34,818 bases of DNA from an uncultured Lachnospiraceae bacterium (GTDB taxonomy: Bacteria; Bacillota; Clostridia; Lachnospirales; Lachnospiraceae): the NCBI GenBank assembly GCA_946630035.1, contig CAMOYN010000001.1:1-34818 (forward strand), written 5' to 3'. Below, piece by piece: positions 2,241 to 16,890 of the stretch. Both the position numbers and the translations under genes were made by a program. The first letter of the stretch is position 1. Every line of letters begins with the position of its first letter. The notes beneath the pieces were generated by a model. The model was not told the origin of the DNA and did not search any database. It worked only from the letters and a program-made list of their open reading frames with translations.

Positions 2241-3161
2241 ATGAGCCGTTCAAAAAAGAATAATGATCCGAAAAAGAAGAAAAGCGGCGCACTGGTGAAT
2301 GCGATCCTTTTCCTGATCATGCTGATCGGAGCGGGCATTATTGCCTACCCTACCTTTTCGGACTGGTGGAACTCGTTTCATCAGACGCGGGCGATCGCAG
2401 GATACGTGGAGCAGGTAGCATCGATGGACCAGGAGGTCTTCGACAAGATGTGGGAGGATGCGGTAGGTTATAACTTGCAGCTCCCCTACAATGCAAACCG
2501 GCTGCTGTTAAGTGATGAAGAAAAACAAGTCTACAATTCGATTCTGGATGTTACCGGAACCGGAATCATGGGATATATCGACATTCCGAAGATCGATATC
2601 AGTCTTCCGATCTATCATGGAACAGACGAAGCGGTTCTTCAGATTGCCATTGGTCACATCGAGGGAACGTCCTTCCCGGTAGGCGGTCCGGGCACGCACT
2701 CTGTATTGTCCGGACATCGCGGGTTGCCTTCGGCGAAGTTGTTCTCGGATATTGACCAGCTGGTGGAAGGGGATCGTTTCCTGATCCAGGTCCTGGACAG
2801 AACGCTGACCTATGAGGTCGACCAGATCCGGATCGTGCTCCCGGCGGAGCTGCAGGATCTGGAGATTGTAGAAGGCGAAGACTACTGTACCCTGGTAACC
2901 TGTACACCCTACGGTGTAAATACCCACCGGCTTCTGGTGCGTGGGCATCGTGTGGAGACAGAACAGGAAGAGGCGCACGTAGTCGCAGATGCTATGAAGT
3001 TTGAACCGGTACTGGTGGCACCTCTGGTAGCCGCACCGATCCTGTTGCTTCTTCTGCTCCTGCTGCTGCTTTCCACCAGCGGACGGAAGCGCAGACGCAG
3101 AGACAGGGCGCGCCGGAGAGCAAGAAAAGCAGCCAGGGAACTGGCGAAGAGAGACCAATAG
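2241..3161 (+). CDS. srtC: Class C (pilus-type) sortase
   Basis: The N-terminal membrane anchor reads KKKSGALVNAILFLIMLIGAGIIAYP. The catalytic His is in VLSGHRG, the catalytic Cys is in the TLVTCTPYG (TLxTC) motif, and the catalytic Arg is in LLVRGHR. A C-terminal TM segment (poly-Leu run) with an Arg-rich tail is typical of class C enzymes. Confidence 0.9.
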   Translation: MSRSKKNNDPKKKKSGALVNAILFLIMLIGAGIIAYPTFSDWWNSFHQTRAIAGYVEQVASMDQEVFDKMWEDAVGYNLQLPYNANRLLLSDEEKQVYNSILDVTGTGIMGYIDIPKIDISLPIYHGTDEAVLQIAIGHIEGTSFPVGGPGTHSVLSGHRGLPSAKLFSDIDQLVEGDRFLIQVLDRTLTYEVDQIRIVLPAELQDLEIVEGEDYCTLVTCTPYGVNTHRLLVRGHRVETEQEEAHVVADAMKFEPVLVAPLVAAPILLLLLLLLLLSTSGRKRRRRDRARRRARKAARELAKRDQ

Positions 3162-3233
3162 TGGAACGTTGTTCGTGCAAATTTGCAGCAGGATCAATAC
3201 AGGATAGTATTGAATCGAAATAAGGAGGATGTT

Positions 3234-4313
3234 ATGAAGAGGGCAGAGAGCTTTATCGCTCAGAAAAAACGGAGGACAGGAACCGTACTGGCTGCTCTGC
3301 TGGCAGGGATTGCTGTTTTGCTTGCAGCAGTGCCCGCACGGGCAGCAGACATTACACAGGAGCCAATTTCTTTGACTGTGATTCCGGGCAGCGCCACACA
3401 GTTGGATTCGTTGAAAGAGGCGAACGTGGTGGTGGATCTCTATCAGATCGCTACGGTAGACAACCTGAATCCCTATCATTTTACGACGATTGAAAAGTAT
3501 GCATCGTTGAAGTCGCAGGTAGAAGATCCGAATGTCACAAACGAACAGTGGCGGGAAGTTGCAGCAAAAGCTTTTAAGCATGCTGTAGATAACGGATTGA
3601 CCCCTGTGCTGCAGGAGCAGCCGGTGAACCAGCCGATTATCCTTTCTTCCTGGGGACTGTATCTGGTGATTGCCAGAGGGAGCGACATATCAGATTATGT
3701 GAGAACACTGGATGACGGAAGTATTGGAACCATCGCCCGAAACGGAAAGGAACAGTTCACCTTCCAACCGGAGTTGATTGCGATTCCAGGAAAAGATCCA
3801 GATGAGTATGGAAAAATCAATACATCGAACCCTGGTGATTGGCAAACTGAAGTTACTATAACTCTGAAACCAGATCAGTCTGAACGTGAATCGGCGATTG
3901 AAATTGTTAAGACCCTCAGTACATATGAAACAAAAGATCCTGCGACTTTTGTATTCCAGATTGAGGCTTGGTTACCGGGCGGTCCTGATGATAAAAAGCC
4001 TGAGAACAAAGTATATAGTAATACAATCGCACTAACCTTCGATGAGTCATCACCAGTACTTCAGTCTTATGTTATTGATGGACTGCCAGTTGATGCTTAT
4101 GTTGAGGTGACGGAGGTCTATTCCGGAGCCAATTACCGGCTGACGACGGATGAGACGAAGACGATTACTGTAGCGGCGGATGAAATAAAACAAGCAGTAT
4201 TCGATAATACTTATGATGATAAATACCATGGTGGTGGCTCTGTTGTGAACTTGTTTGAGTATGATGAGAACAAGGGTTGGGTCAATGAAAAGATATTTGA
4301 TGAGTCTAACTGA
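3234..4313 (+). CDS. Secreted pilin-like protein with a CnaB-type C-terminal domain and no C-terminal sorting signal
   Basis: I prefer the ATG at 3234 (AAGGAGGATGTT upstream) over the ORF-track start at 3183. The Sec signal peptide is MKRAESFIAQKKRRTGTVLAALLAGIAVLLAAVPARA/AD. Pilin-like strings are present: GLYLVIARG and DWQTEVTITLKPD. The C-terminal domain (IEIVKTL ... VEVTEVY ... AVFDNTYD) resembles a CnaB isopeptide domain. The C-terminus (...EKIFDESN) has no LPXTG motif and no TM segment. Confidence 0.7.
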   Translation: MKRAESFIAQKKRRTGTVLAALLAGIAVLLAAVPARAADITQEPISLTVIPGSATQLDSLKEANVVVDLYQIATVDNLNPYHFTTIEKYASLKSQVEDPNVTNEQWREVAAKAFKHAVDNGLTPVLQEQPVNQPIILSSWGLYLVIARGSDISDYVRTLDDGSIGTIARNGKEQFTFQPELIAIPGKDPDEYGKINTSNPGDWQTEVTITLKPDQSERESAIEIVKTLSTYETKDPATFVFQIEAWLPGGPDDKKPENKVYSNTIALTFDESSPVLQSYVIDGLPVDAYVEVTEVYSGANYRLTTDETKTITVAADEIKQAVFDNTYDDKYHGGGSVVNLFEYDENKGWVNEKIFDESN

Positions 4314-4328
4314 TAGGAGGGCTGAATA

Positions 4329-4847
4329 ATGAAAAAATGGATAAATAGTAATGCCTTCCGGTCTATAGCAATCTTGGCGTTAGCTGTGATTATGATTGCA
4401 GGAGCATCGATTCGTAGTGCGTGGTCTTATTTTACTACTTATGCGACAGCCAAGGGTGGCTATATAATTCATCTAGGAGATCAAACGGATATTGAAGAAG
4501 ATGTTTCTCAATGGAAAAAGCATATAAAAATCAAAAGTGATGCGGATTCTGATCCAGTATATATTCGCGCAAGAGCTTATTGGGGAGATGATTATACTTG
4601 TCATTATGAAGACTCAAGCGGTAAATGGTCTCCAAGATCGGATGGTTGGTATTATTATAGTGATATTGTTTATGGTGGCGATATTACAGATGAATTAGTG
4701 GTTGTTATAGATAATCATCCAGAAATAGATCAGCCAGGCCCTGATTTTAATGTGATTGTAGTTTATGAGAGCCTTCCTGTAGAATATGATTCAAATGGAA
4801 ATATTGTGGAGCCAGACTGGAATAAAAAAGTAAATGACGAGAAGTGA
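4329..4847 (+). CDS. Small TasA-family-like protein with a SipW-dependent-type signal peptide
   Basis: The RBS is AGGAGGG. The N-terminus MKKWINSNAFRSIAILALAVIMIAGASIRSAWSYFTTYATAKG matches the SipW-cognate signal pattern (hydrophobic core, then G..x.A.(Y/F)F(S/T)D-like). SDPVYIRARAY resembles the xVYVR strand of TasA/CalY-like proteins. The gene is AT-rich compared with its neighbours. Confidence 0.7.
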   Translation: MKKWINSNAFRSIAILALAVIMIAGASIRSAWSYFTTYATAKGGYIIHLGDQTDIEEDVSQWKKHIKIKSDADSDPVYIRARAYWGDDYTCHYEDSSGKWSPRSDGWYYYSDIVYGGDITDELVVVIDNHPEIDQPGPDFNVIVVYESLPVEYDSNGNIVEPDWNKKVNDEK

Positions 4848-4861
4848 GGAGGGAGTTTTAA

Positions 4862-5731
4862 GTGAAAGATTATAAAAAATCGGACAATTTACTACACAGA
4901 GTTCTCCTTTCTCCTATGACAACAATAGGCGCATTCGCGTTGGCGGTAGTTTTACTTGGAATTAGTGGTATTGGTGGAGCTAGAGCGGCGTTACAGTACT
5001 ATTCCGAGAACTATGAATCGCATCTGGAAATGTATGATATTGGTGTTTCTTTGTTGGAGAATGAGGACAGAGTTTCTTTCCGTGATTACGTTCAAAATTC
5101 TGATGGGGTTTGGAGCGAGACAGAAGGAACATTGCTGACACATATGTTAGATGCAATAGGGGAGAATGGAGAACCTGTAAAGGACGAGAATGGTAATATC
5201 GTGACTGAAGAATTAAAAATAGGAGACGATTATAAATACAAGGAAGAATTGTCAATAATGAATTCAGGATCGATCGATCAATATGCGAGAGTATCCATCT
5301 ATAAGTACTGGGAGAAGGATGGCAAAAAACTCACAAATCTGTCTCCGGACCTTATTCATCTAAATTTTGTTAATTGTGATGGAGCGAATGCAGACTGGGC
5401 GATTGATGAGAATGCTTCGACAGATGAACGTACTGTTTTGTATTATCGGCATTTGCTTAAGGCGGGTGAAACATCTTCAATATTTACGGACACTTTATCA
5501 ATTGATGGAATGCTTGCATCAAAGAAAACGGTACATAAATCTGAACCTATCACTGATAAAGATGGTCGTAAGAAGACCGTCATTACCACATCCTATGATT
5601 ACGATGGTGTGAGATTCTGCATCGAAGCAACCGTAGATGCTGTACAGGAGCACAATGTTTCCGATGCCATTCTGTCTGCATGGGGCGGCAAGGTTACGTC
5701 CTCCAATGCGGAACTGAGTCTGATCAAGTAA
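4862..5731 (+). CDS. TasA/camelysin-family protein with a SipW-dependent-type signal peptide
   Basis: The start is GTG, 6-7 nt after GGAGGGAG. The N-terminus reads ...TTIGAFALAVVLLGISGIGGARAALQYYSENYES (compare TasA GGGTWAAFND). LKIGDDYKYKEELSIMNSGSIDQYARV and the C-terminal FCIEATVDAVQEHN...AWGG resemble the TasA/CalY core and its C-terminal strand. Confidence 0.75.
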   Translation: MKDYKKSDNLLHRVLLSPMTTIGAFALAVVLLGISGIGGARAALQYYSENYESHLEMYDIGVSLLENEDRVSFRDYVQNSDGVWSETEGTLLTHMLDAIGENGEPVKDENGNIVTEELKIGDDYKYKEELSIMNSGSIDQYARVSIYKYWEKDGKKLTNLSPDLIHLNFVNCDGANADWAIDENASTDERTVLYYRHLLKAGETSSIFTDTLSIDGMLASKKTVHKSEPITDKDGRKKTVITTSYDYDGVRFCIEATVDAVQEHNVSDAILSAWGGKVTSSNAELSLIK

Positions 5732-5743
5732 GGAGGGACAGCT

Positions 5744-6604
5744 ATGAATATGAAAAAAATTGCGATGCTTTCTATGCTGGCTGCTTCTCTCACAGTGACT
5801 TCTCTGGTGACCGAGCCGGTGAAAGCAGAAAAACTGGGCGGCAAGCAGAACTGGGCTGTTACATTCACCGCGGATAAGAAGATGACGAGTAACTTCAAAT
5901 CCGACAACATGGATGATGTGATCAATGGCATGCAGCCCGGTGATGAAGCTTCCTTTACTCTGAAACTTACCAATGAGTACTCTACCGGCACGGACTGGTA
6001 CATGACCAACAAGGTCCTGAAGTCCATGGAGGATCAGAGTGCCAACAGCGCCACGGCCGGTGGTGCTTATACCTATCACCTCACCTATACGAATCCGGAA
6101 GGCAAGGTCACGGTACTGTTTGATTCCGATACCGTCGGTGGTGAGGAGAGCGAGAACATTATTAAAAATGCAGGAGAAGGTCTTCATGAGGCTACCTCCG
6201 CACTGGAAGATTTCTTCTTCCTGGATGACCTGAAGACCGGAGAGAGCGGCCAGATCGATCTGACGGTGGCTCTGGATGGTGAGACTCAGGGTAACGATTA
6301 CCAGGATACACTGGCAGAACTGCAGATGAATTTCGCGGTAGAGCTTGCCGTGGAAAATGACGAACCGGAAACTACGAAACCTTCTCGTGAGAATCCTACG
6401 GATGAAACCACCAAACCGAATAACCGGGGCGGTGACCGTGAGGTCGTTAAGACCGGCGATGAGACGAACATGAATACCTACTACATCCTCGCCGGTATCA
6501 GCGGAGCTCTTCTTCTCTTCCTTGGTTTCCTGAGCATTTCCATGAGAAAACAGGAAGCGGCGAGAGCCCGTAAGAAGAGCCGGAAGGGAAGGAGGAGAGT
6601 ATGA
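5744..6604 (+). CDS. TasA-like surface protein with an ordinary Sec signal and a non-canonical cell-wall sorting signal (VVKTGD)
   Basis: The RBS is AGGAGGG and the signal peptide ends ...TEPVKA/EK. MQPGDEASFTLKLTNEYS and GETQGNDYQDTLAELQMNFAVE parallel B. subtilis TasA LKPGDKLTKDFQFENNGS and NKYQGNSIKLQFSFEATQ. The C-terminus is REVVKTGDETNMNTYY, then a hydrophobic stretch ILAGISGALLLFLGFLSISM, then a basic tail RKQEAARARKKSRKGRRRV. This is the tripartite architecture of a sortase substrate. Confidence 0.75.
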   Translation: MNMKKIAMLSMLAASLTVTSLVTEPVKAEKLGGKQNWAVTFTADKKMTSNFKSDNMDDVINGMQPGDEASFTLKLTNEYSTGTDWYMTNKVLKSMEDQSANSATAGGAYTYHLTYTNPEGKVTVLFDSDTVGGEESENIIKNAGEGLHEATSALEDFFFLDDLKTGESGQIDLTVALDGETQGNDYQDTLAELQMNFAVELAVENDEPETTKPSRENPTDETTKPNNRGGDREVVKTGDETNMNTYYILAGISGALLLFLGFLSISMRKQEAARARKKSRKGRRRV

Positions 6605-7806
6605 TGAAGAAAGACAGAAAATCATTCCCTTCTCGCTGCCACGCCACCCTCATGGCAGTGGTTATGATGATCACTCTGGTTGCCGGACTGGTGATGCCTT
6701 CGGTAAACACCCGGGCCGCTAAGGATTATACCTATACGGTAAGAGTATTTGCCGGTAAACAGGGAAATATCGGAGGAGCTGCCGTTAAGGAGTTCGACGG
6801 ACTCGCCTATGGAGAAGAGTTCAGTTTCAACCCGATCCAGCAGGCGACGGTGAAAGAGGATAGTAAGTATTATGTCAAAGGTATGCGTGAGAGCGGAAAG
6901 GATAATAATACTTCCCTCGCCATGCAGAACTTCAAAGTAACCAGAGATGTGGACTACGTAATTGCTTACGGACTGAAAGGCAATCTGGTAGAGTATACCG
7001 TACGGTTTGTGGAAGCAGGTACCAATACCCAGCTAGCCGATCCGGAGACGTACTATGGCAATGTAGGAGACAAACCCGTTGTTTCCTATAAATATATTGA
7101 AGGTTACTTCCCCAATGCGAACAACATGACGGGTACACTGAAAGAGGACGCAAGCAAGAACGTGTTTACTTTCCAGTACCAGAAGATCGTAGAGGAAGAG
7201 ACCACTACCACAGCGGAGAGTGAAGCTGAGACGACGACCCGGAGCAGCGGAGATAACAATACTCCTACCCGGAGCTCGCCGAATCCTACCTCGCCGGCAC
7301 CTACCACTCGTGCCAGCAATGAAACCACGCGTGCCAATCAGGAGACCACGACTGCAGCGTCCGGTTCTACAGCGGAGACTACGACTACGACCGCACCGGC
7401 CCAGCCCGAACAGCCGACCCAGCCGACCCAGCCGCCGACAGAGGCCACCTCTGAGGGTGCTGTAGCCGAAGAGAACGAGCTGCAGAATCCTCCGACCGAA
7501 CCGACCCTGCCTTCGTCCCCGGATGAAGTACCGGATCTGATCGATATCGATGAGGGCCCTGTACCTCTGGCTGAATTCTCCGGAGCGTCCGATGAAGGCA
7601 CGGAGACCGGATCCGATTCCTCCAGCCTGAGCCCGAACGACAATGTGAGACCTGGCAGCGGCCTGTCCACTTCCAAGATTATCGTGATCGCAGTCGGAGC
7701 AGCCCTGCTGATCGCACTGGCTGTCATCTTCCTGCTTCGCAGAAGAAGATACGATGACGAAGAGGATGAGGACGACGAAGACGATTTAGACGATTACGAC
7801 GAGTAA
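6601..7806 (+). CDS. MucBP-like surface protein with a Thr/Pro-rich stalk, a C-terminal TM anchor and a poly-acidic cytoplasmic tail
   Basis: The start overlaps the upstream stop (ATGA), and GGAAGGAGGAG lies upstream. It has a signal or anchor sequence. VEYTVRFVEAGTNTQLADPETYYGNVGDKPVVSYKYIEGYFP...NVFTFQYQK is MucBP-like. About 150 aa of T/P/S/E-rich linker follow. The C-terminus is KIIVIAVGAALLIALAVIFLLRRRRYDDEEDEDDEDDLDDYDE, and no LPXTG motif is present. Confidence 0.75.
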   Translation: MMKKDRKSFPSRCHATLMAVVMMITLVAGLVMPSVNTRAAKDYTYTVRVFAGKQGNIGGAAVKEFDGLAYGEEFSFNPIQQATVKEDSKYYVKGMRESGKDNNTSLAMQNFKVTRDVDYVIAYGLKGNLVEYTVRFVEAGTNTQLADPETYYGNVGDKPVVSYKYIEGYFPNANNMTGTLKEDASKNVFTFQYQKIVEEETTTTAESEAETTTRSSGDNNTPTRSSPNPTSPAPTTRASNETTRANQETTTAASGSTAETTTTTAPAQPEQPTQPTQPPTEATSEGAVAEENELQNPPTEPTLPSSPDEVPDLIDIDEGPVPLAEFSGASDEGTETGSDSSSLSPNDNVRPGSGLSTSKIIVIAVGAALLIALAVIFLLRRRRYDDEEDEDDEDDLDDYDE

Positions 7807-7839
7807 AGACAAAGAAAAGCATATAAAGTGCCAATGGTT

Positions 7840-7880
7840 ACAGCGGCCCGGTGATGAAAAGGCCGGGCCGCTGTTCTTTG
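7840..7880 (+). terminator. Stem-loop terminator ending the sortase/TasA-like operon
   Basis: A perfect 12-bp stem pairs ACAGCGGCCCGG (7840-7851) with CCGGGCCGCTGT (7863-7874) around an 11-nt loop. It is followed by TCTTT, a weak T tract. Confidence 0.55.
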
Positions 7881-7972
7881 AGAAGAGAAAACGCCCGTGA
7901 TTCCTGCGAGCCGTGGAACTGACAAATCGTGCGGATTGCAGAGAAAACTAAGGGCTATTGTAAAGGCTATTC

Positions 7973-8001
7973 TTGACAGATCGACTAAAAAAGTGCACAA
8001 T
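7973..8001 (+). promoter_or_regulatory. Candidate sigma-A promoter for sipW
   Basis: TTGACA (7973-7978), a 17-nt spacer, then CACAAT (7996-8001). It lies about 30 nt upstream of the sipW ATG. Confidence 0.4.
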
Positions 8002-8033
8002 AAAAGAAAAAGCATCATGAAAGGGCTTGGAAT

Positions 8034-8549
8034 ATGAGCGACAAAAGGGCTCGCAAAAGGAAAAAAAGAAAAAAAAGATTTGTGCGCTTCATGTGCCGAC
8101 TGACAGGAACACTGATCCTGCTGGCTGTGATTGCGGCCTGCGCCAGTGTGACACTGCCTCGTTATTTTGGATATGAGATCTTCCATGTGGTGAGTGGAAG
8201 TATGGAACCGAAGATTCCGGTAGGAAGTATTGCCTATGTGGAGAAGGTCCCTCCGGAGACGATTGAGAAGGGACAGATTATCGCCTTTTACAGCGGCAAC
8301 TCGGTGATTATTCACCGGGCGGTGAAGAACCAGGTAGTAGAAGGTTATTTCAATACAAAAGGGGATGCCAACGACGGAGAAGACATGAACAATGTGGATT
8401 ACGATCAGATCATAGGAGTGGTCCGATTCCATTATCCTGTCCTGGGGCAGTGGTTCATGGTCTTTACCTCAGAGGTTGGCAAGCTTTACGTGATCTGCTT
8501 TGCGGCCTGCGGGGCACTGTTGAATATCGTAGCAGGCCGTCTTGAATAA
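8034..8549 (+). CDS. sipW: ER/archaeal-type signal peptidase I (S26B), SipW
   Basis: The N-terminus is basic and followed by a TM segment. VVSGSMEPKIPVGSIAYV carries the catalytic Ser, IIHRAV carries the catalytic His, and the TKGDAN motif and a C-terminal TM are present. It is collinear with B. subtilis SipW (VVLSGSMEPEF...THRIV...TKGDNN). Confidence 0.9.
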   Translation: MSDKRARKRKKRKKRFVRFMCRLTGTLILLAVIAACASVTLPRYFGYEIFHVVSGSMEPKIPVGSIAYVEKVPPETIEKGQIIAFYSGNSVIIHRAVKNQVVEGYFNTKGDANDGEDMNNVDYDQIIGVVRFHYPVLGQWFMVFTSEVGKLYVICFAACGALLNIVAGRLE

Positions 8550-8604
8550 TGAAAATAGATCCTTGATGGGATAAATATAGAGTTTTATGGGGAGGTGAGA
8601 GCGG

Positions 8605-9495
8605 ATGCAGCAGAAGATGCGGCGGATACTGGCCTGTGGGATGGCATGTATTCTGGGGATCATCGGAGGCAGCATGCGCCCTCAGGCCGCTTATGAAGCG
8701 CCGGCGATGGAGATGGCTGCGTTTCATGAAGGAGCGGCTGAAGGAAATGATTCAGTAAAGATTGATTTGTCACAGACATCGCAGGGGATTGTGGCAGCGA
8801 CCGCCAAGGCCGCAGGAAAAGTGAAGTTTCAGGTGATACTGGGCGAGGCAGCGTATACCTATGACCTGTCCTCCGAAGGGGCACCGGGGGTTTTCCCTCT
8901 GCAGAGCGGAAACGGACACTATTCCTTCCGGGTGCTGGAAAATGTTTCCGGCTCCAAATACGCGATGTTATATCAGACCGAAGCGGACGTACAGATCGAA
9001 GATGAGTTTGCACCCTTTCTGCGGCCCAGTGTCTACACCAATTACTCGGCGGCTTCGGCCTGCGTGACGAAAGCCAGAGAGCTGGCTGCGACGGCAGAGG
9101 ATGCGAATGGCGTGGTACACGCCGTCTTTGACTTTATCTGCAGCAATGTTGTCTATGACCGGGAGAAAGCGGCAACGGTACAGGCCGGTTATGTGCCGAA
9201 ACCGGATGAGACTCTGAGCACCGGCAAGGGGATCTGCTTTGACTATGCGGCTCTGGCAGCGGCGATGCTGCGGAGTCAGGGGATTCCCACCAAGATGATT
9301 TTCGGATATGTGTCACCGAACGATGTCTATCACGCGTGGAACATGTTCTATACGGAGGATACCGGCTGGGTGACTGTGGATTACCAGGTGAGTGAGGACA
9401 GCTGGAACCGGCTGGACCTTACGTTTTCAGCCAACGGAGCCGATGGAAGTTTCATCGGTGATGGCAGCAATTATACAGATGTTTATTATTACTGA
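8605..9495 (+). CDS. Secreted transglutaminase-like (Cys-His-Asp core) domain protein
   Basis: The RBS is GGGGAGGTGAGAG. The signal peptide is MQQKMRRILACGMACILGIIGGSMRPQAA/YE. The transglutaminase core reads GKGICFDYAALAAAMLRSQGIPTKMIFGYV ... YHAWNMFY ... GWVTVD. Confidence 0.85.
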   Translation: MQQKMRRILACGMACILGIIGGSMRPQAAYEAPAMEMAAFHEGAAEGNDSVKIDLSQTSQGIVAATAKAAGKVKFQVILGEAAYTYDLSSEGAPGVFPLQSGNGHYSFRVLENVSGSKYAMLYQTEADVQIEDEFAPFLRPSVYTNYSAASACVTKARELAATAEDANGVVHAVFDFICSNVVYDREKAATVQAGYVPKPDETLSTGKGICFDYAALAAAMLRSQGIPTKMIFGYVSPNDVYHAWNMFYTEDTGWVTVDYQVSEDSWNRLDLTFSANGADGSFIGDGSNYTDVYYY

Positions 9496-9521
9496 GTATA
9501 GCAGCAGAGGAAGAGGTGCTT

Positions 9522-10571
9522 ATGAGCCAAAGAAAACTGGACAACCTGGGAGTCAGCGCTTTCTGTGAAAGTATGGCTATGATGATTCAGGCCGGCATCC
9601 AGACCGATGAGGCGATCGCCTTGCTGGGACAGAACCACGCCCATGTCACGGGTGGTGTTCTGGAGACGGCCATAGATAAGATGAAAGAGAAGGTGGAGAT
9701 AGGAGAAAGCCTGTCCTCTGCGATGCGCGAGAGTGAAATATTCCCGGAGTATGCTCTGCAGATGATAGCGGCCGGTGAGTCGGCCGGCCGGCTGGAAGAC
9801 GTGCTGTTCCGTCTCTCCCGTTACTATGCGGATCAGAAAACCATCAGTGAGAAGCTGAAAAATGCGGTCACTTATCCGGCCGCCATGCTGGTTCTGATCA
9901 TCGCCGTGCTGGCGGTGATGCTGACGATGGTGCTTCCCGCCTTTTCCGATGTCTATGATAATCTGACAGGAAGCCTGTCTTCTTCCACCTACAGTTACAT
10001 TCACTGGGCCTATGGATTCTGCTGGGTAGCCCTGGTCGTGATGGTGATTCTGGCCGTTCTGCTGATTGGCGGGCTGTGGCTCTGGAACCGCGGTGAGAAA
10101 AAGAAGGTGGAGGGACTGCTCCGGAAAATCCCGGTATGCAGAGACATCCTGGACACGATGGGGATGTTCCGGTTTACTTCCGCTCTGGAGACCTTCCTGG
10201 CCAGCGGCGAGATGCAGGATATCGCGGTGATCGACAGTATTGCCATGACGGACTGTGCTCCCGTGGAAGAGAAACTGAAACGATGCGTTTCCCGCATGGA
10301 AGAGGGACACAGCATTGCCCAGGCCGCCTATGATGAAGAGCTGTTTGAACCGGTGTATGGCCGGATGCTTCTGGCGGGTGAGCGAAGCGGCAGCATGGAG
10401 AATGTGCTGAGCCGTCTGACCGGACTCCTGGAAGAGAACTGCGGAAGCATGGTGGATCATCTGGTAGGTATCGTGGATCCTCTGCTGTCCGGTGTTTTGA
10501 TGGTAACCGTGGGATTATCCCTTCTGAGCGTCATGCTTCCTCTGATCGGTATGATGAACGCTGTGGGGTAA
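9522..10571 (+). CDS. pilC: Type II secretion / type IV pilus platform protein (GspF/PilC family)
   Basis: I prefer the ATG at 9522 (GAGGAAGAGG 5 nt upstream) over the GTG at 9516. Two T2SSF-type repeats are present: GESLSSAMRESEIFPEYALQMIAAGESAGRLEDVL and GHSIAQAAYDEELFEPVYGRMLLAGERSGSMENVL. TM segments lie between them. Confidence 0.9.
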   Translation: MSQRKLDNLGVSAFCESMAMMIQAGIQTDEAIALLGQNHAHVTGGVLETAIDKMKEKVEIGESLSSAMRESEIFPEYALQMIAAGESAGRLEDVLFRLSRYYADQKTISEKLKNAVTYPAAMLVLIIAVLAVMLTMVLPAFSDVYDNLTGSLSSSTYSYIHWAYGFCWVALVVMVILAVLLIGGLWLWNRGEKKKVEGLLRKIPVCRDILDTMGMFRFTSALETFLASGEMQDIAVIDSIAMTDCAPVEEKLKRCVSRMEEGHSIAQAAYDEELFEPVYGRMLLAGERSGSMENVLSRLTGLLEENCGSMVDHLVGIVDPLLSGVLMVTVGLSLLSVMLPLIGMMNAVG

Positions 10572-10656
10572 AAGAGCGCGGCGAAGGAATGAGAATCAGC
10601 GAAGTAACCCGGAGTAACCCCAGGAAACCGATGGATTTCCGGAAACAGGAGGTGCC

Positions 10657-10986
10657 ATGTATTCAGATAAGAAAAAGTTCAGATGGTCATGGCTCCTGGC
10701 AGGCGTATTGCTTGTAGCTCTGTTGGCAGCCGGCGGTGCGTTTTTCCGGATACGGGGAGGCGCGGACATTCATCAGGAGGCGGTTGTCTCTGTGAGGGAA
10801 GCCGTGGAGCGCGCGGCACTTCAATGCTATGTGGTCGAGGGGGCCTATCCCTCGGATCTGGAATATCTGACAGAAAACTATGGACTGGCGGTAAATACGA
10901 GGGATTTCTATATACGTTATGATGCGTTTGCCTCGAACCTTCCGCCCGATGTGAGAGTGGAACCAAAGCCGAAAGAAGAGAGGTGA
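10657..10986 (+). CDS. Pseudopilin-like small membrane protein with no canonical prepilin cleavage motif
   Basis: The RBS is AGGAGGTGCC. A single N-terminal hydrophobic helix (WSWLLAGVLLVALLAAGGAFF) is followed by AALQCYVVEGAYPSDLEYLTENYGL. This resembles the A..Y...G.YP..L..L..GY head-domain motif of GspG/ComGC-type pseudopilins. No G/FTLxE motif is present. Confidence 0.55.
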   Translation: MYSDKKKFRWSWLLAGVLLVALLAAGGAFFRIRGGADIHQEAVVSVREAVERAALQCYVVEGAYPSDLEYLTENYGLAVNTRDFYIRYDAFASNLPPDVRVEPKPKEER

Positions 10987-10993
10987 GTGCGGG

Positions 10994-11470
10994 ATGAGGG
11001 AGCAAAAGGGTTCTCCGCTGGGATTCTATATGCTGGGAATCTGTGCCCTGTTTCTGGCGAGCTTTCTGCTTCTGGTAGTTCTCGGCGCAGGAGTGTACCG
11101 CCGGACTACCGGCAGCCAGAATCAGAACAATCAGACCCGGGCTCTGCTGTCTTATCTTGCTACGGTGGTTCGCGCCAACGATATGAGCGGCGGTATCCAT
11201 GTAAGGGAAGGAGCAGCTCCGGACGGGCAGCTGCTGCTGATCGCGGAAGATGGCAGCGGATATGGTTCCCGGATCTATCCCTACGGGGAATATCTGCTGG
11301 AAGATTATGGCGAAGTGGAAGGGGAGTTTGACCCGGAGCACGCGCTGAAGATCGGCAAGATTCAACAGTTTGAGATCGACTGGGATAAGGATCAGAATTC
11401 TTTATGGATTACAGCCAATGATAATCATCTGCTGTTGCACCTCCGAAGCGAAGGGGGTGTCAGCGAATGA
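10994..11470 (+). CDS. Small membrane protein, possibly DUF4860-like (family recalled from memory, unverified), with a degenerate prepilin-like N-terminus
   Basis: The RBS is GAGAGGTGA. The N-terminus is MREQKGSPLG/FYMLGICALFLASFLLLVVL, with Gly-Phe ahead of the hydrophobic helix and Gly instead of Glu at +5. Its stop overlaps the next start (ATGA). Confidence 0.5.
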   Translation: MREQKGSPLGFYMLGICALFLASFLLLVVLGAGVYRRTTGSQNQNNQTRALLSYLATVVRANDMSGGIHVREGAAPDGQLLLIAEDGSGYGSRIYPYGEYLLEDYGEVEGEFDPEHALKIGKIQQFEIDWDKDQNSLWITANDNHLLLHLRSEGGVSE

Positions 11471-11898
11471 AGAAAAAGGGACATATAACTGCTTTTTACA
11501 TTGAAACACTGGTTATGATCACCGTGGTGATCGGCATTCTGCTGGTACTGTCTCAGATCATGGGGCTTTCCAGAAAGCAGAGTATCCGTGCCAAACGGCT
11601 GACCGAGGCTGTGACCATTGCCCAGAGCATGGCGGAGGCCTCCGTGGGCTGTGGTGACCTGGCATCCTTTCCCCTGGAACTGGGGGAAGCATCTCTGGGA
11701 GAAGAGACCGAAGGAAAAGAAGTTCTCTCCGGGACCTATCTTTGGTCCGATGAGGGAGAGGGAACAACCCTCTATCGGGTTCAGGTGCTGAGAACCCGGA
11801 TGGATGCGATGGCAGAGGACGAGATCTCTGTATTCCCGGCGGAGGGCGAGGAGCCCATCTACACCTTGCATGTGCGGCACAGAGAGGGGGAAACATGA
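11467..11898 (+). CDS. Pseudopilin-like protein with a degenerate class III signal
   Basis: The N-terminus is MKKKGHITAFYIETLVMITVVIGILLVL (compare the canonical KKGFTLIELLVVIAIIGIL). The Glu is displaced by one position and three residues are inserted after the Gly. It overlaps both neighbouring genes by ATGA. Confidence 0.55.
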   Translation: MKKKGHITAFYIETLVMITVVIGILLVLSQIMGLSRKQSIRAKRLTEAVTIAQSMAEASVGCGDLASFPLELGEASLGEETEGKEVLSGTYLWSDEGEGTTLYRVQVLRTRMDAMAEDEISVFPAEGEEPIYTLHVRHREGET

Positions 11899-12299
11899 AT
11901 CAGACGCCTGTTAAACTGGGACCGCTGGCCTTGCTGCTGACGGTGGTCAGCATCTGTCTGACAACATTGGCGATTCTGACCTTCTCAACCGCCCGGGCGG
12001 ACATGAGACTGGCAGAGAAATATGCCGATATGGTTTCCCTGCGATATGAACTGATGAATGAAGGAGAAGATTTCCTTCAAAGTGCCGAAGAGATGGCTGC
12101 GATGAGCATACCGGTTCGTTCCGTACCGGGCACCACGGCGGATGCACAGGGTGTAATTCGTTATGATCTGGAAAAGGATGGCATGCAGCTTACCATCGGT
12201 GTCCGGGAAGAGGCACAAAAGATATCCGTAGTGGATTATCGTATAACGAAGGAATGGGAAGAGGATCTGGATCTTGGAAATCTCTGGCCTGGATTCTGA
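11895..12299 (+). CDS. Small membrane protein (possible minor pseudopilin)
   Basis: The RBS is GAGGGGGAAAC. The N-terminus is MNQTPVKLG/PLALLLTVVSICLTTLAILTF, with a Gly just before a single hydrophobic helix. It is translationally coupled to the upstream gene. Confidence 0.45.
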   Translation: MNQTPVKLGPLALLLTVVSICLTTLAILTFSTARADMRLAEKYADMVSLRYELMNEGEDFLQSAEEMAAMSIPVRSVPGTTADAQGVIRYDLEKDGMQLTIGVREEAQKISVVDYRITKEWEEDLDLGNLWPGF

Positions 12300-12348
12300 T
12301 AATCAGGATTAATCCTGCATGGATGACAGAGAACGGGAGGGGAGTAAA

Positions 12349-13410
12349 ATGAACATCACTGAGATTCTGCAAAAGGCACTGGATGCCGGAGCTGCAGATA
12401 TATTTCTGATCGCCGGTCTGCCGGTTACGTTTAAGTGTAATGGGCACCAGGAAAGGATGCCCGGTGACCGGCTTTTGCCGGACAGTATTCAGACTCTGGT
12501 AGAGGAGATTTATGATGTGAGTCATCGTACCAGAGTCAACCTGGAACAGGGGATCGACGATGATTTCTCCTTTTCGCTGTCTCAGATGGGGCGTTTCCGT
12601 GTCAATGTCTTCCGGCAGAGAGGTTCTCTGGCGGCGGTAATCCGGGTGATTCACTTCGGACTGCCGGATCCCGTGGCACTGGGAATCCCGGAATCGGTTC
12701 TGTCCCTGGCGGACAATAAAAAAGGACTGGTACTGATCACAGGTTCCGCAGGAACCGGAAAATCAACAACCCTGGCCTGTATGATCGACCGGATCAACCG
12801 GCAGAGAGACTGCCACATCATTACGATGGAGGATCCGATCGAATATATTCACCGGCACGATAAAGCGATCGTGACCCAGAGAGAGATATCCATCGATACG
12901 CCGGGCTATCTCGAGTCTCTTCGTTCGGCGCTGAGAGAGAGTCCCGATGTGATTCTTCTGGGGGAGATGAGAGACTATGATACCATTTCTGCCGCGCTGA
13001 CCGCTGCAGAAACCGGTGTGCTTCTCTTCTCGACATTGCACACCAGCAGTGCATCGAATACGATCAACCGTATTCTGGATGTCTTCCCGGCCAACCAGCA
13101 GCAGCAGGTGAAGATTCAGCTGGCGCAGATTCTGAAAGGCGTGGTCTGCCAGCAGCTGGTACCGAAGATTGGCGGAGGACAGACAGCTGTATTTGAAATC
13201 ATGAAGACGACGACCGCCATTCAGAATATGATCCGGGAAGATAAACTGCATCAGCTGGATTCCGCGATGCAGGCCGGAGCCGCCGATGGCATGTGCACCA
13301 TGGATGGCAGCCTCCTCAGGCTGGTGAAAGAGGGAAAGATAACGAAGGAAACCGCCATGATTTCCTGCGTACATTATGAGAATATGAGTAAACGTCTGGG
13401 TGTCAGATGA
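12349..13410 (+). CDS. pilT: PilT-family hexameric secretion ATPase
   Basis: I prefer the ATG at 12349 (GGGAGGGGAG upstream) over the ORF-track start at 12319. Motifs seen: AADIFLIAGLP; GRFRVNVFRQRGSLAAVIRVI; Walker A GSAGTGKST; ITMEDPIEY; Walker B VILLGEMRD; LLFSTLHT; and the PilT-type signature AIQNMIREDKLHQ. At 353 aa it is the size of PilT or ComGA rather than PilB or GspE. Confidence 0.9.
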   Translation: MNITEILQKALDAGAADIFLIAGLPVTFKCNGHQERMPGDRLLPDSIQTLVEEIYDVSHRTRVNLEQGIDDDFSFSLSQMGRFRVNVFRQRGSLAAVIRVIHFGLPDPVALGIPESVLSLADNKKGLVLITGSAGTGKSTTLACMIDRINRQRDCHIITMEDPIEYIHRHDKAIVTQREISIDTPGYLESLRSALRESPDVILLGEMRDYDTISAALTAAETGVLLFSTLHTSSASNTINRILDVFPANQQQQVKIQLAQILKGVVCQQLVPKIGGGQTAVFEIMKTTTAIQNMIREDKLHQLDSAMQAGAADGMCTMDGSLLRLVKEGKITKETAMISCVHYENMSKRLGVR

Positions 13411-13442
13411 CGTAAATAGTGGACGAGAGATTACAGAGAAAA

Positions 13443-14693
13443 ATGGAAATGGATAAGAATTTAAACGAACAGGATATTTTGTATGTAAAAATGTTTGGAA
13501 ACTTCTCCATGACATGGCATGGAAAAGCGCTGGCAGGCGAGGCTAAATCCCTGGAGTCCCAGTTCATTCTACTGATGGAAATTCTGCTGCATAATCGTGA
13601 AAAAGGAGTCACACGAGATCAACTGGAAAGAGCTCTGTTTGAAAACCGGGACATCGATGATGTGCACCATGCGCTGAGAACCGTTATCTATAATGCAAGG
13701 AAAAAGCTGAAAAAATATGGGTTGCCCGATGTGAATTACATTGTTTCCGAGAAAGGGGTCTACACCTGGACGAAGGAGATTCCGGTGGTGGAGGATGCCA
13801 CGGAGATGGAAAAAATGATGGCTCAGGCGGAGGAAGAGACCGATCCGGCAAAGAAGAAAGCATTGTATCTGGATGCATGTCATTGCTATACCGGCGAGTT
13901 CCTCTCCAGTCAGATCGGGATTGTATGGATTGCAAGGGAAGCCAGAAAATACAGAGAATTGTTTTTTGACTGCGTGAATAAGACGGTGGAACAGCTGCGG
14001 GTTTCCCATGACTATTTCCAGATGGAGTCGCTGGGGTATTATGCGTCGAAACTGCATCCGCTGGAGAACTGGGAAATCGTGACCATGGAAGCATTGACGG
14101 CCATGGGACGCTATGATGATGCGGTAAAGCTGTACGAGGATACCGTGGATCTCTACTTCCGGGAGGAAGGACTGAAGCCTTCGGGACGTCTGATGGAGAT
14201 GCTGGATGAACTGGGAAGCAGTATGGAACATCAGCATGCCGTCCTGGATGACATTCAGGGAGACCTGGCCGAAGAGGGAGAGCCCGGCGGTGGGTATGCC
14301 GTTTCCTACCCGGTGTTCCAGGGAATCTATCGTATGATTGAACGGCTGCTGGAACGCGGCGGCCAGTCGGTATTTCTGATGCTGTGCACGGTGGTGGACA
14401 GTAAAGGGAATCCAATGAGAGAAGGGAGCGCTCTGGAGGAGCTGTCCCAGCGTCTGGGAGAAGCGATCCACAATTCCGTGCGGCACAGCGATACGATGAC
14501 CCGCTATGGGAGAGGACAGTATCTGGTTCTTCTGGTTAATACCACTCTGGAAGACTGTAAGATTGTTCAGAAGAGAATTAATCTGCATTTTATTAAAGGA
14601 CGTCAAAGAACGGGAATCAAGTATCACGTGAATTCAGTAATCTGCGAGCCGGATATTATATTCCACTCAAAAGGACCGGAGGACAGAGAATAA
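13443..14693 (+). CDS. SARP-like winged-helix / BTAD regulator fused to a degenerate GGDEF domain with an intact RxxD I-site
   Basis: The start is uncertain (GTG 13419, ATG 13443 or ATG 13449). The N-terminus reads ILYVKMFGNFSMTWHGKAL...QFILLMEILLHNREKGVTRDQLERALF...ALRTVIYNARKKL, which is SARP/OmpR-like. ALYLDACHCYTGEFLS is a BTAD-like string. The C-terminus reads VFLMLCTVVDSKG...LGEAIHNSVRHSDTMTRYGRGQYLVLLVN. It aligns with PleD RAIDLPCRYGGEEFVVIM: RHSD corresponds to the RxxD I-site and GRGQY replaces GGEEF. Confidence 0.75.
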   Translation: MEMDKNLNEQDILYVKMFGNFSMTWHGKALAGEAKSLESQFILLMEILLHNREKGVTRDQLERALFENRDIDDVHHALRTVIYNARKKLKKYGLPDVNYIVSEKGVYTWTKEIPVVEDATEMEKMMAQAEEETDPAKKKALYLDACHCYTGEFLSSQIGIVWIAREARKYRELFFDCVNKTVEQLRVSHDYFQMESLGYYASKLHPLENWEIVTMEALTAMGRYDDAVKLYEDTVDLYFREEGLKPSGRLMEMLDELGSSMEHQHAVLDDIQGDLAEEGEPGGGYAVSYPVFQGIYRMIERLLERGGQSVFLMLCTVVDSKGNPMREGSALEELSQRLGEAIHNSVRHSDTMTRYGRGQYLVLLVNTTLEDCKIVQKRINLHFIKGRQRTGIKYHVNSVICEPDIIFHSKGPEDRE

Positions 14694-15172
14694 TGGCAAA
14701 TTCACAATGCTATATCGGGACTCCCAATGGCGTAGTTTTGTGTGTTGACCGGAAATCAGGCGACGGCCTGGATGGACATTTCTGGCATGGATACAGGGAA
14801 GATGCCGTGAAATTTTCAAGACTGTATGAATTTGTACAGGAGCTGGAAAAATTCTTTGATGAGATCCGTTTTCCGTACCGCGGTACGACGATGCGTACGT
14901 TCGGAGTGGCAGCAGTTCCCAGACAGAGACAGGAGAAAACGAGGGTTATGGCAGACGAGAAACTACTGGAAAAGAGAGGCGACCTGGGGACTTTCATCGT
15001 TCGGGTGCAGCACCGTCAGAACAGCAGCTGGCAGGGACGTCTGACCTGGATTGAAGAAGACAAAACGGTATATTTTCGCTCCATCTGGGAGATGATAAAG
15101 CTGGTGGAGAGCGCTCTGGATACCGTGGATTCGGAAGAATTGATGGAGAATGTTTCCTGGTCGGAAGAGTGA
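14693..15172 (+). CDS. Hypothetical cytoplasmic protein built from two copies of a domain of about 45 aa
   Basis: The start overlaps the upstream stop (TAATG), and GGAGG lies 10 nt upstream. The two halves align: VVLCVDRKSGDGLDGHFWHGYREDAVKFSRLYEFVQELEKF and FIVRVQHRQNSSWQGRLTWIEEDKTVYFRSIWEMIKLVESA. I do not recognise the family. Confidence 0.6.
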   Translation: MANSQCYIGTPNGVVLCVDRKSGDGLDGHFWHGYREDAVKFSRLYEFVQELEKFFDEIRFPYRGTTMRTFGVAAVPRQRQEKTRVMADEKLLEKRGDLGTFIVRVQHRQNSSWQGRLTWIEEDKTVYFRSIWEMIKLVESALDTVDSEELMENVSWSEE

Positions 15173-16890
15173 TGGAGATGGATAAAAAACTGCGGCATTA
15201 CAACGATATCCGTCGTGTTGTGATGGTTGTGGATGATGAGCCGATCAACCAGGAGATGCTGGGATTTATCCTGAAAAAGGATTATGAAGTCGTGCTGGCA
15301 TCGAATGGCGAAGAGGCACTGGAGAAGATCCGGAGCCGTAAAAGGACTCTTTCCATGATACTCCTGGATTTGAATATGCCGGTTATGGATGGCTATCGTC
15401 TGCTGGAAATACTCCGGGAAGATGAAGAACTGAAGTACATTCCTGTGATTGTACTGACGGCAGAGGATGGGGCAGAAGTCCGGTGTCTGGAACTGGGCGC
15501 AGTGGATTTTATCAAAAAGCCTTACAACGTTCCGAGTGTGATACTGGCCAGGGTCCGGCGGGCGATTGAACTGTCCGAAGATAACCGGATTATACAGGAT
15601 GCAGAACAGGACGAACTGACCGGATTATACAACCGGGTATTCTTCTTTGAGTATGCGTCACAGATGGATCCTTTTCAGGAAAAAGGCGAGACGGACGCCA
15701 TTGTGATCAATATTGATCATTTTCATCTGGTCAATGAATTATACGGCAGAATCTATGGGGATCAGGTCCTGCAAGCCATTGCCGACGGAATCCGGGAATT
15801 CATGGATGAGAACCGGGGGATTGCCTGCCGGTGTGACGGGGATATGTTCTATATCTATTGCCCTCACCAGAAGGAACCTGCTGCGATTCTGGATGTGATC
15901 CGACGCCATCTGGAAAAACTGCCCGATGATTCGCGGATTCGCCTGCGGATGGGAGTCTATGCGAAGGCGGCACCGGATGAGCTGATGGAACGACGATTTG
16001 AACGCGCAAAACTGGCCTGCAGTACGGTGCGCGGCAAATACATAGAACCGGTTGCCTGCTATGATGTTTCCATGTCGGAGACGGAAGTTCTCTCAGAGCG
16101 ACTGGTCAATGATCTGAAAAGAGGTCTGGATGAGAAACAGTTTAAGGTCTGGTTCCAGCCGAAATACGCTATTCAGGGAGAACAGCCCCAGCTTTCCAGT
16201 GCGGAGGCTCTGATCCGGTGGGATCATCCTGAATTCGGAATGATCAGTCCGAGTGTATTTATCCCTCTTTTTGAGAATAATGGGCTGGTGCAGAAACTGG
16301 ATCATTATGTCTGGGCGGAAGCAGGAAGATGGATTGCTTCCTGGAAAAGTAAATATGGATTTACGGTACCGGTTTCCGTGAATATATCCCGGGTGGACAT
16401 GTATGACCCCCGGCTGAAGGAAAAGATACTGACGATATTAGAAGAGAATCATCTGACTCCGGAGGATTATCTCCTGGAAATCACGGAATCGGCTTATTCC
16501 GATGATCTGGAACAGCTGATTCATATCGTGGAAGAACTGCGTGTTCTGGGATTTATGATCGAGATGGATGATTTCGGAGCCGGATATTCAACCTTGAATA
16601 TGCTCACGGTTCTTCCGGTGGATGTTCTGAAGCTGGATATGCAGTTTGTGAAGAATGCAACCAGCGACAGAAAGAATTACCGGCTGGTAGAACTGATGAA
16701 AGATATTGCCAGATTCCTGGAGGTGCCGATTGTGGCAGAGGGTGTCGAGACGAAGGAGCAGTGTGAGATACTGCAGAAGATCGGATTCGACCTGGTGCAG
16801 GGATATTATTTCAGCCCGCCCCTGCCTCCGGAGGAATTTGAAAAGCTGATAAAAAAGGAAGTCGATAGGAAAGGAGCAGAGATATGTTGA
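15172..16890 (+). CDS. Response-regulator receiver + degenerate GGDEF + EAL domain protein (predicted c-di-GMP phosphodiesterase)
   Basis: Candidate starts are GTG 15169, ATG 15172 and ATG 15178, overlapping the upstream stop. REC domain: VVMVVDDEP...MILLDLNMPVMDG...VIVLTA. GGDEF fold with the A-site changed to RCDGDMF. EAL domain: QPKY...AEALIRW, NISRVD, EITES, DDFGAGYS, LKLD, VAEGVET, QGYYF. The catalytic set looks complete. Confidence 0.9.
   Translation: MEMDKKLRHYNDIRRVVMVVDDEPINQEMLGFILKKDYEVVLASNGEEALEKIRSRKRTLSMILLDLNMPVMDGYRLLEILREDEELKYIPVIVLTAEDGAEVRCLELGAVDFIKKPYNVPSVILARVRRAIELSEDNRIIQDAEQDELTGLYNRVFFFEYASQMDPFQEKGETDAIVINIDHFHLVNELYGRIYGDQVLQAIADGIREFMDENRGIACRCDGDMFYIYCPHQKEPAAILDVIRRHLEKLPDDSRIRLRMGVYAKAAPDELMERRFERAKLACSTVRGKYIEPVACYDVSMSETEVLSERLVNDLKRGLDEKQFKVWFQPKYAIQGEQPQLSSAEALIRWDHPEFGMISPSVFIPLFENNGLVQKLDHYVWAEAGRWIASWKSKYGFTVPVSVNISRVDMYDPRLKEKILTILEENHLTPEDYLLEITESAYSDDLEQLIHIVEELRVLGFMIEMDDFGAGYSTLNMLTVLPVDVLKLDMQFVKNATSDRKNYRLVELMKDIARFLEVPIVAEGVETKEQCEILQKIGFDLVQGYYFSPPLPPEEFEKLIKKEVDRKGAEIC

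Follow-up and report, generated by a model that had tools for sequence, protein, structure and literature searches.

The 34.8-kb window analyzed here is the whole of contig CAMOYN010000001.1 (34,818 nucleotides) from an uncultured Lachnospiraceae bacterium. It holds seven consecutive genes, srtC-P2-P3-P4-P5-P6-sipW, i.e., a gene for a class C sortase, five structural genes that we label P2 to P6 in gene order, and a gene for a SipW-type signal peptidase (Table 1). We propose that these genes are a conserved surface-fibre cassette of Lachnospiraceae, in which a SipW-matured fibre built from distant relatives of BsaA and TasA would have a sortase-fixed end (P5), a membrane-anchored partner (P6) and a pilin-like accessory protein (P2). 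The conservation is observed; the mechanism we infer from the sequences, and we give it an even chance of being right.

The seven genes are a conserved unit

All seven open reading frames (ORFs) were confirmed on the + strand at the coordinates given in a preliminary description of the window. From srtC to P6 they are packed tightly, with gaps of 12–21 nucleotides or, at the P5/P6 junction, an overlap of 4 nucleotides in which the start of P6 precedes the stop of P5. The P5 family comprises about 1000 clusters at 50% identity. A scan for P5 relatives with one genome per species gave 340 loci, and the 80 of these that were retrieved and inspected for gene order were all from Lachnospiraceae or mis-binned relatives. 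The order srtC-P2-P3-P4-P5-P6-sipW was collinear in about 75 of the 80. Because seven genes keep their order in nearly all inspected loci, their clustering is far beyond chance and they are a conserved unit. The co-occurrence of srtC, sipW and TasA-like genes noted in the preliminary description hence extends across the family, and we rejected the possibility of a one-off juxtaposition.

The cassette usually stands beside a sortase pilus. In 57 of the 61 loci with enough upstream sequence, srtC was preceded by genes for a giant LPXTG adhesin with DUF7601 and for a SpaH/RrgB-type shaft pilin ending in LPSTGG. The shaft pilin gene adjoins srtC directly, and the pilin has an invariant lysine, K183, in the context ATPKN. 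On the other side, a class B sortase (TIGR03064, 177–194 bits; cut-off 153.75 bits) was found directly 3' of sipW in 33 (57%) of the 58 loci counted for this feature; the remaining 25 had no class B sortase nearby, and their P5 signal was unchanged. The window is a stripped-down copy of the cassette, without pilins or class B sortase. Its closest relative, locus L006, whose srtC product is 72% identical, carries the seven genes with no additions, flanked by unrelated genes for a flavoprotein and a ribonuclease. srtC thus belongs to a set of seven genes that behaves as a module of its own. One locus is permuted (L010, 199-16016): it begins with sipW, a BTAD regulator and the regulator partner, continues with srtC and P2 to P6, and has a 2474-residue FctA/CnaB adhesin downstream, not upstream.

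Natural fusions occur within the cassette. In-frame fusions of P5 with P6 recur (L006, 5830-7734; P0243), and in them the sortase signal comes to lie mid-protein. Of the 150 P5 representatives listed, about ten have lengths that fit such a fusion. A fusion of P4 with P5 (P0329) runs from a SipW-type N-terminus through a BsaA-like domain and a P5 domain to the signal SPQTND, which resembles the class B motif NPQTN. It fits P5 as part of the same assembly as the BsaA-like domain. Because both kinds of fusion exist, the sequences support a view in which P4, P5 and P6 act in one assembly.

A class C sortase is the only sortase in the window

The product of srtC scored 277 bits on the class C sortase model NF033745 (cut-off 160 bits), and its residues His159, Cys221 and Arg234 were invariant in 70 orthologues. 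The class C sortase that had been placed at the head of the operon is thus borne out. It shares 51–72% identity with the sortases that head the same cassette in relatives. A simple pattern search over residues 40–140 of the 70 orthologues found no DP[FWY] lid motif, despite scores well over the class C cut-off.

No other sortase gene was found in the window or in L006, and tblastn with SrtB of relatives detected no class B sortase in the window. SpaA-type pilins and sorting-signal proteins other than P5 were searched for across the 34.8 kb, and none were found; likewise, no gene in the window encodes a shaft pilin with both an LPXTG signal and a pilin-motif lysine. In the window these features lie on different proteins, the sorting signal on P5 and the lysine motif on P2. 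Class C sortases normally link pilins to one another, with a pilin lysine as the nucleophile, and do not link them to the cell wall.

P3 and P4 are distantly BsaA-like and P5 is at best partly TasA-like

Window P3 scored 24.5 bits (E = 1.9e-5) and window P4 17.1 bits on TIGR04090, the model for the BsaA family of SipW-dependent biofilm matrix proteins, both below its cut-off of 60 bits. The matches recurred in the orthologues: 14 of 21 for P3 (best E = 1.4e-8) and 26 of 32 for P4 (best E = 5.5e-8, over profile positions 60–229 of 241) matched TIGR04090 and essentially no other family. Judged by sequence, P3 and P4 appear to be distant relatives of the TasA/BsaA families and, by the curated rule, not members. 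For P5, the hidden Markov model (HMM) searches gave no match to any TasA, BsaA, camelysin or Peptidase_M73 model, and a full-library HMM search with the P5 profile returned orthologues only among the 150 matches listed, with no bridge to TasA.

The conserved N-termini of P3 (AWAYFTTY) and P4 (GGARAALTYYSE) have a likeness to the TWAAFND of TasA; the motifs AWAYFTTY and ARAALTYYSE are conserved. Profile-profile comparison (hhalign) of the P5 and P4 profiles with a single TasA sequence gave nothing significant, and a TasA family alignment, built from PF12389 members only, was required. With this alignment, P3 matched via its N-terminus alone, i.e., the signal and donor-strand region (E = 1.4e-4), and the P4 profile had no significant match. 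P5 matched with E = 4.4e-6 over 83 columns in its N-terminal half only; when signal peptides were left out, the match had E = 8.6e-5 over 51 columns, with the LKPGD...N.GSL...VL region of TasA at their centre. Comparison of the P2, P4 and P5 profiles with the sequences of solved structures produced noise only, with no pilin or TasA match.

AlphaFold2 predicted a β-sandwich for the P4 monomer (predicted local distance difference test score, pLDDT, 77.5) and for the P5 monomer (pLDDT 68). In the P4 model the N-terminal strand 38–55 is of low confidence, which would be compatible with a donor strand. A Foldseek search with the P5 model found the TasA fibre (8aur_A) at rank 36 with a probability of 0.94, E = 9e-3 and a TM-score of 0.31–0.36. 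The preliminary description had counted three TasA-like proteins. Of these, P3 and P4 keep a place as probable distant members of the BsaA/TasA superfamily, given matches that are below threshold but consistent, and P5 would be at best partly TasA-like, its similarity being weak and partial; none of the three reached a curated cut-off of these families.

P5 has a conserved sorting signal and P6 a plain membrane anchor

At the C-terminus of P5, VVKTGD precedes a hydrophobic membrane segment and a basic tail. The family alignment shows the signal as [VI]V[KR]T[GS]D, in which V, T and D do not vary, so the wall sorting signal earlier assigned to the third TasA-like protein is confirmed as a family-wide feature. 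P5 is the only sorting-signal protein in the window, as it is in L006. On the model TIGR03063 for SrtB targets, window P5 reached 16.3 bits (cut-off 18.15 bits). The same model matched 6 of 31 P5 orthologues, and the LPXTG model matched 3 of 31.

The listed C-termini of P6 have no sortase motif, and a plain membrane helix takes its place. A MucBP protein had been announced for the locus. This is carried by the family, where 15 of 19 P6 orthologues matched MucBP (best E = 3.8e-6), and weakly by the window copy, with 14.4 bits. The best hhalign pair among P2 to P6 was P5 with P6 (E = 1.3e-3, 93 columns, probability 18%), and the two may be old paralogues.

P2 resembles a pilin but lacks a sorting signal

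P2 consists of a signal peptide, an N-terminal Ig-like domain, a CnaB-type DUF5979 domain with a K/E/N triad and a conserved tail. It scored 33 bits on Pfam DUF5979 (cut-off 25 bits) and also matched DUF7601; DUF5979 was matched by 16 of 18 orthologues. The N-terminal domain ends in WQTEVTITLK, whose last residue is Lys229 of the ORF (codon 3867-3869). In the orthologue alignment this Trp and Lys and the K, E and N of the triad are invariant. The resulting motif, W-x3-V-x-[VI]-x-L-K, is spaced like the published pilin motif WxxxVxVYPK (PMC4420484, PMC3485203). It is present in 55 of 80 P2 orthologues, compared with 1 of 342 background ORFs. None of the distinct P2 orthologue C-termini listed has a sorting signal, and in the inspected loci P2 stands directly 3' of srtC without exception. 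An acceptor lysine without a donor signal, always beside a class C sortase, is unusual and suggests from sequence that P2 would accept a sortase-borne partner.

The structural genes had previously been described as not encoding classic LPXTG pilins. This holds in that the window has no LPXTG pilin, but the pilin-like P2 with its lysine motif had been overlooked. After the CnaB domain, P2 has the tail GGGSxxNxF..W (window 4239-4313), in which Asn, Phe and Trp are invariant. The tail might serve for docking or as a donor strand, and its conserved Asn could be part of an isopeptide lock.

SipW looks catalytically competent and is set apart in the window

The sipW product scored 82 bits on TIGR02228 (cut-off 51.85 bits) and 70.7 bits on the Bacillus SipW model. 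Because none of its residues Ser56, His94 and Asp111 varies among 64 orthologues, the enzyme looks catalytically competent. The locus thus has a dedicated SipW gene, as had been proposed, but this gene does not follow directly on the structural genes: it starts 228 bp past P6, from which a strong hairpin and a promoter-like site separate it. The hairpin has a 13-bp GC-rich stem and is followed by UUCUUUG. The segment 7830-7895 folds with −31.2 kcal/mol (z = −4.7), and none of 200 shuffled sequences folded as well. In relatives, P6 and sipW overlap. With hairpin and promoter-like site in the gap, sipW of the window copy may be transcribed with the downstream genes.

Comparison with known fibre and pilus systems

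The cassette shares features with several described systems. In Clostridium perfringens, srtB adjoins sipW-bsaA-bsaB, and bsaB has an LPXTG motif in most strains (PMC11580942, Kivimaki et al. preprint); the locus also holds bsaC, and secretion is type IV pilus-assisted (Obana 2020, PMC7395162; PMC11580942). Alike are the dedicated SipW and the several BsaA/TasA-like proteins, one of which bears a sortase signal, with a sortase gene beside them. The signal-bearing paralogue has already been suggested there as the fibre anchor, and the type IV pilus link has a counterpart in the PilC-like and PilT-family genes directly downstream in the window. In contrast, the window sortase is of class C and heads the operon, no class B sortase is present in the window, and no VWA protein like BsaC was found among the ORFs scanned (2241-17812). 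The window has, in addition, the pilin-like CnaB protein P2 without a sorting signal and the membrane-anchored MucBP protein P6; its signal is VVKTGD and not LPXTG, and its BsaA similarity is below the family cut-off.

With tapA-sipW-tasA of Bacillus subtilis (PDB 8AUR, 5OF1) the cassette shares the SipW-type peptidase, the TasA-like N-termini, the LKPGD...N.GSL region in P5 and, presumably, a donor-strand β-sandwich fibre. However, the window has no TapA homologue, the Bacillus system has neither sortase nor wall-sorting signal, and the sequence similarity is marginal, with hhalign E values of 1e-4 to 1e-6 over part of the protein. SpaA/RrgB-type pili have in common with it a class C sortase with intact His-Cys-Arg, the CnaB-type isopeptide domain and pilin-motif-like lysine found in P2 and, in relatives, a tip adhesin and an LPSTGG shaft pilin directly upstream. 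They differ in that the window lacks an LPXTG pilin, its sole sorting-signal protein is not pilin-like, P2 has no signal, and the simple pattern search found no DP[FWY] lid in the srtC family.

In the FCT pilus of Streptococcus pyogenes (PMC4049620, PMC3019223), a gene of the signal-peptidase family lies inside a sortase pilus locus and motifs are of the non-LPXTG xVxTG type; in relatives of the window the peptidase gene likewise stands beside a class B sortase. The window peptidase, in contrast, is of the ER (endoplasmic reticulum)/archaeal type and active-looking, and FCT loci have no TasA-like genes. Bacterial TasA-like (AbpX) loci hold LPXTG or SLH anchors, sortases and cyclic di-GMP (c-di-GMP) genes, and donor-strand oligomers of LPXTG anchors with TasA-like subunits have been predicted with AlphaFold 3 (bioRxiv 10.64898/2026.01.04.697558). 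They thus combine TasA-superfamily subunits with a signal peptidase I, an LPXTG-type anchor, a sortase, a diguanylate cyclase and HD-GYP, and the anchor subunit is predicted there to join the fibre by donor-strand complementation. Unlike the window, they have another subunit family and a peptidase with ten membrane helices, and no module of class C sortase and pilin-like P2 is described in that preprint.

BsaA/TasA genes have also been reported to neighbour genes for LPxTG and SpaA proteins, sortases and signal peptidases often, and sortase anchoring has been speculated upon (PMC11580942). The preliminary description had taken the architecture as not described. Two preprints (PMC11580942; bioRxiv 10.64898/2026.01.04.697558) already report TasA-like loci with LPXTG anchors, sortases and signal peptidases and propose sortase anchoring; the idea of joining sortase, SipW and TasA-like proteins is in the literature and is not a new category. 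New with respect to both preprints are the Lachnospiraceae cassette headed by a class C sortase, its signal-less pilin-like P2 and the VVKTGD-type signal, together with the usual joining of the cassette to a SpaA-type pilus and the stripped variant in the window. The P4-P5 and P5-P6 fusions seen in relatives are also new.

Proposed mechanism and alternatives

In the mechanism that we favour, SipW would remove the TasA-type signal peptides of P3 and P4, and the two proteins would assemble outside the membrane into a donor-strand fibre or stalk of the TasA/BsaA type, with P4 as the candidate main subunit. P5 would be exported by the ordinary route and cut by a sortase between Thr and Gly of VVKTGD; covalently fixed, it would form the anchored end of the same assembly. 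P6 would be a membrane-anchored MucBP-like partner made together with P5, and P2 a pilin-like accessory subunit or adaptor. Because srtC is the only sortase gene in this contig, its class C product is the candidate here for processing P5. Anchoring of P5 by this enzyme is only one of several readings, since relatives have LPSTGG pilins and a class B sortase and the P5 signal is closer to the SrtB-target model.

Several observations weigh against this mechanism. P3, P4 and P5 all fall short of the curated cut-offs on TasA, BsaA and Peptidase_M73 models. The SipW-signal model TIGR04088 was never matched (E ≤ 0.1), also not by P3 and P4 orthologues; the SipW-type signals previously assigned to P3 and P4 agree with the likeness of the N-termini to TasA and not with the dedicated model. 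Foldseek returned only generic cohesin and CBM3 sandwiches for the P4 model, and for the P5 model it ranked the C-terminal domain of the C. perfringens enterotoxin above TasA. No significant similarity among P2 to P6 was found by hhalign, which thus gave no support for paralogy of P3, P4 and P5. In the window, hairpin and promoter-like site part sipW from the structural genes. The P5 motif is unlike the LPSTGG of the srtC-linked pilins in relatives and nearer to SrtB-target signals, and class C sortases are usually pilin polymerases, not wall-anchoring enzymes. Finally, the contig is only part of the genome, and a class B or housekeeping sortase may lie elsewhere.

The pilins beside srtC and the class B sortases beside sipW in relatives also fit two separate systems that share a neighbourhood and a regulator. 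SrtC would then serve the LPSTGG pilus and the SipW-dependent proteins would form a separate matrix fibre, while a class B or housekeeping sortase would link P5 to the wall. In the window, srtC would be a leftover, its pilins lost or located elsewhere, and P5 would be handled by a sortase encoded off the contig. The more frequent SrtB-target than LPXTG matches of the P5 orthologues, the class B-like signal of P0329 and the pairing of srtB with sipW-bsa in C. perfringens argue for this division. We nevertheless think it rather unlikely: srtC always lies immediately 5' of P2 to P6 with very short gaps, the cassette including srtC is kept in the window and L006, where pilins are absent, loci without a nearby class B sortase retain the P5 signal, and the pilin-like P2 is an invariable member of the cassette. 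Class C sortases use pilin lysines as nucleophiles, and SrtC could instead build a covalent bridge by joining the Thr of VVKTGD in P5 to the invariant lysine of P2, whose tail would dock into the BsaA-like subunits. In relatives, the Thr of the LPSTGG shaft would be ligated to the P2 lysine too, and P2, having no sorting signal, could accept a chain but not pass it on. If true, a covalent element made by the sortase would sit on a donor-strand polymer of the TasA type or be capped by one; such a junction of two fibre chemistries has not been described so far. Neither the window nor L006 offers a plausible donor other than P5 or a plausible acceptor other than P2, and the bridge agrees with the CnaB-type domain and its triad, with the spacing of the invariant Trp and Lys and the rarity of the lysine motif in background ORFs, with the listed signal-less C-termini and with the fixed place of P2 directly 3' of srtC. 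Yet the motif only resembles the pilin motif, with x-L-K in place of Y-P-K, the lysine of the relatives' shaft pilins stands in a different context (ATPKN), P2 matches no solved pilin structure by sequence, and retention of the P5-P2 product on the cell would be left unexplained. We consider the bridge unlikely.

SipA of S. pyogenes is a bacterial-type signal peptidase homologue without catalytic residues. SipW could correspondingly be a pilus-assembly helper like SipA/LepA, with P3, P4 and P5 as minor pilus-associated proteins and not TasA-type subunits. In S. pyogenes, polymerization of the FCT pilus needs a signal-peptidase homologue, the pilus sortase is of class B and the motifs are (E/Q/V)(V/P)PTG (PMC4049620, PMC3019223); the adjacency of sipW and srtB in relatives and the xVKTG motif of P5 resemble this trio. 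However, a chaperone-like role has been proposed for the signal peptidase-like SipA (PMC4049620, PMC3019223), whereas the peptidase here is of the ER/archaeal SipW type with invariant Ser, His and Asp, and P3 and P4 have TasA-type N-termini and match only the SipW-dependent BsaA model. We judge a helper role very improbable, and rated a SipW that is an inactive SipA-like chaperone as unlikely in view of its invariant catalytic residues.

Distribution and significance

The cassette reaches at least 340 species-level gut and rumen Lachnospiraceae genomes, including Dorea, Roseburia, Acetatifactor, Eubacterium and Lachnotalea, and the annotation of every one of its structural proteins is 'hypothetical'. 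In these common commensals it probably encodes a major organelle of adhesion or biofilm formation that has escaped study. Sortase anchoring of TasA/BsaA-type fibres has so far been proposed from gene order alone, and the family offers natural test cases, i.e., minimal cassettes that have a single sortase, cassettes that combine a class B with a class C sortase, P4-P5 and P5-P6 fusions, and cultured carriers, for example Dorea sp. 5-2, Acetatifactor aquisgranensis DSM 110981 and Lachnospiraceae bacterium 62-26 or 29-84. A lysine acceptor that has no sorting signal, if P2 proves to be one, would provide a new way to end or join sortase pili.

Flanking genes

Table 1. Positions of the cassette genes, intergenic elements and downstream genes in the window
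Feature	Position	Strand	Description
srtC	2241-3161	+	class C (pilus-type) sortase with N- and C-terminal membrane segments
P2	3183-4313	+	secreted pilin-like protein; true start probably ATG 3234; no sorting signal
P3	4329-4847	+	small BsaA-like (TasA superfamily) protein with SipW-type N-terminus, SAWSYFTTYATAKGG
P4	4862-5731	+	BsaA-like protein with SipW-type N-terminus, GGARAALQYYSE; candidate main fibre subunit
P5	5744-6604	+	secreted β-sandwich protein (predicted) with ordinary AxA signal peptide, partial TasA-like motifs, Pro/Thr-rich stalk and VVKTGD signal
P6	6601-7806	+	membrane-anchored protein with MucBP-like domain, Pro/Thr-rich stalk, C-terminal membrane helix and acidic tail
Hairpin	7840-7874	+	13-bp GC-rich stem, then UUCUUUG; possible terminator or attenuator
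Promoter-like site	7973-8001		TTGACA-17-CACAAT, between P6 and sipW
sipW	8034-8549	+	ER/archaeal-type (S26B) signal peptidase I
Transglutaminase-core protein	8605-9495	+	secreted, probably lipoprotein; optional cassette add-on
Partial type IV filament module	9516-13410	+	PilC/GspF-like platform protein, four small membrane proteins, PilT/PilU-family ATPase
Regulator	13419-14693	+	BTAD/SARP-type with degenerate GGDEF end; BTAD and Trans_reg_C matched
Regulator partner	14693-15172	+	conserved 159-residue protein

The transglutaminase-core protein encoded next to sipW scored 82 bits on Transglut_core, has a lipobox-like ILAC and gave a weak LapG-like match (E = 0.007). Homologues stand 3' of sipW/srtB in six relatives (L032, L036, L041, L045, L051, L063). 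Because c-di-GMP genes lie around it, the protein could release or cross-link the fibre.

The module that follows has a PilC/GspF-like platform protein (9516-10571; T2SSF, 133 bits), four small membrane proteins (10657-12299), DUF4860 among them, and an ATPase (12319-13410) of the PilT/PilU retraction family (TIGR01420, 406 bits; cut-off 319 bits) that also matched T2SSE. The genes scanned included neither a PilB-type assembly ATPase nor a prepilin peptidase; the four small ORFs 5' of the PilT gene have N-terminal hydrophobic segments and no clear G/FTLxE prepilin motif. The same transglutaminase/PilC/PilT insertion is present in L045, L051 and L063 and partly in L041; in these loci it is located 3' of srtB. 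By analogy with the type IV pilus-assisted Bsa secretion of C. perfringens, these transglutaminase-like, PilC-like and PilT genes probably help in export or remodelling.

The BTAD/SARP-type regulator and its partner close the cassette in 32 of the 58 relatives counted, where they stand 3' of sipW/srtB with 52–66% identity. Expression is probably governed by the BTAD regulator together with the nearby c-di-GMP genes. Further c-di-GMP and phosphorelay genes flank the locus, i.e., genes for a response-regulator-GGDEF-EAL protein and an Hpt protein at 15169-17225. On the opposite side, 5' of srtC, a divergent gene on the − strand (1-1873) encodes a membrane protein with an HDIGKIGIP (HD-GYP-like) motif and runs off the left end; the + strand ORF 44-1873 opposite this gene was dismissed as an artefact. 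Just 3' of the locus lie two tandem genes for bacterial-type (LepB) signal peptidase I (17225-17812 and 18202-18810), which add to SipW.

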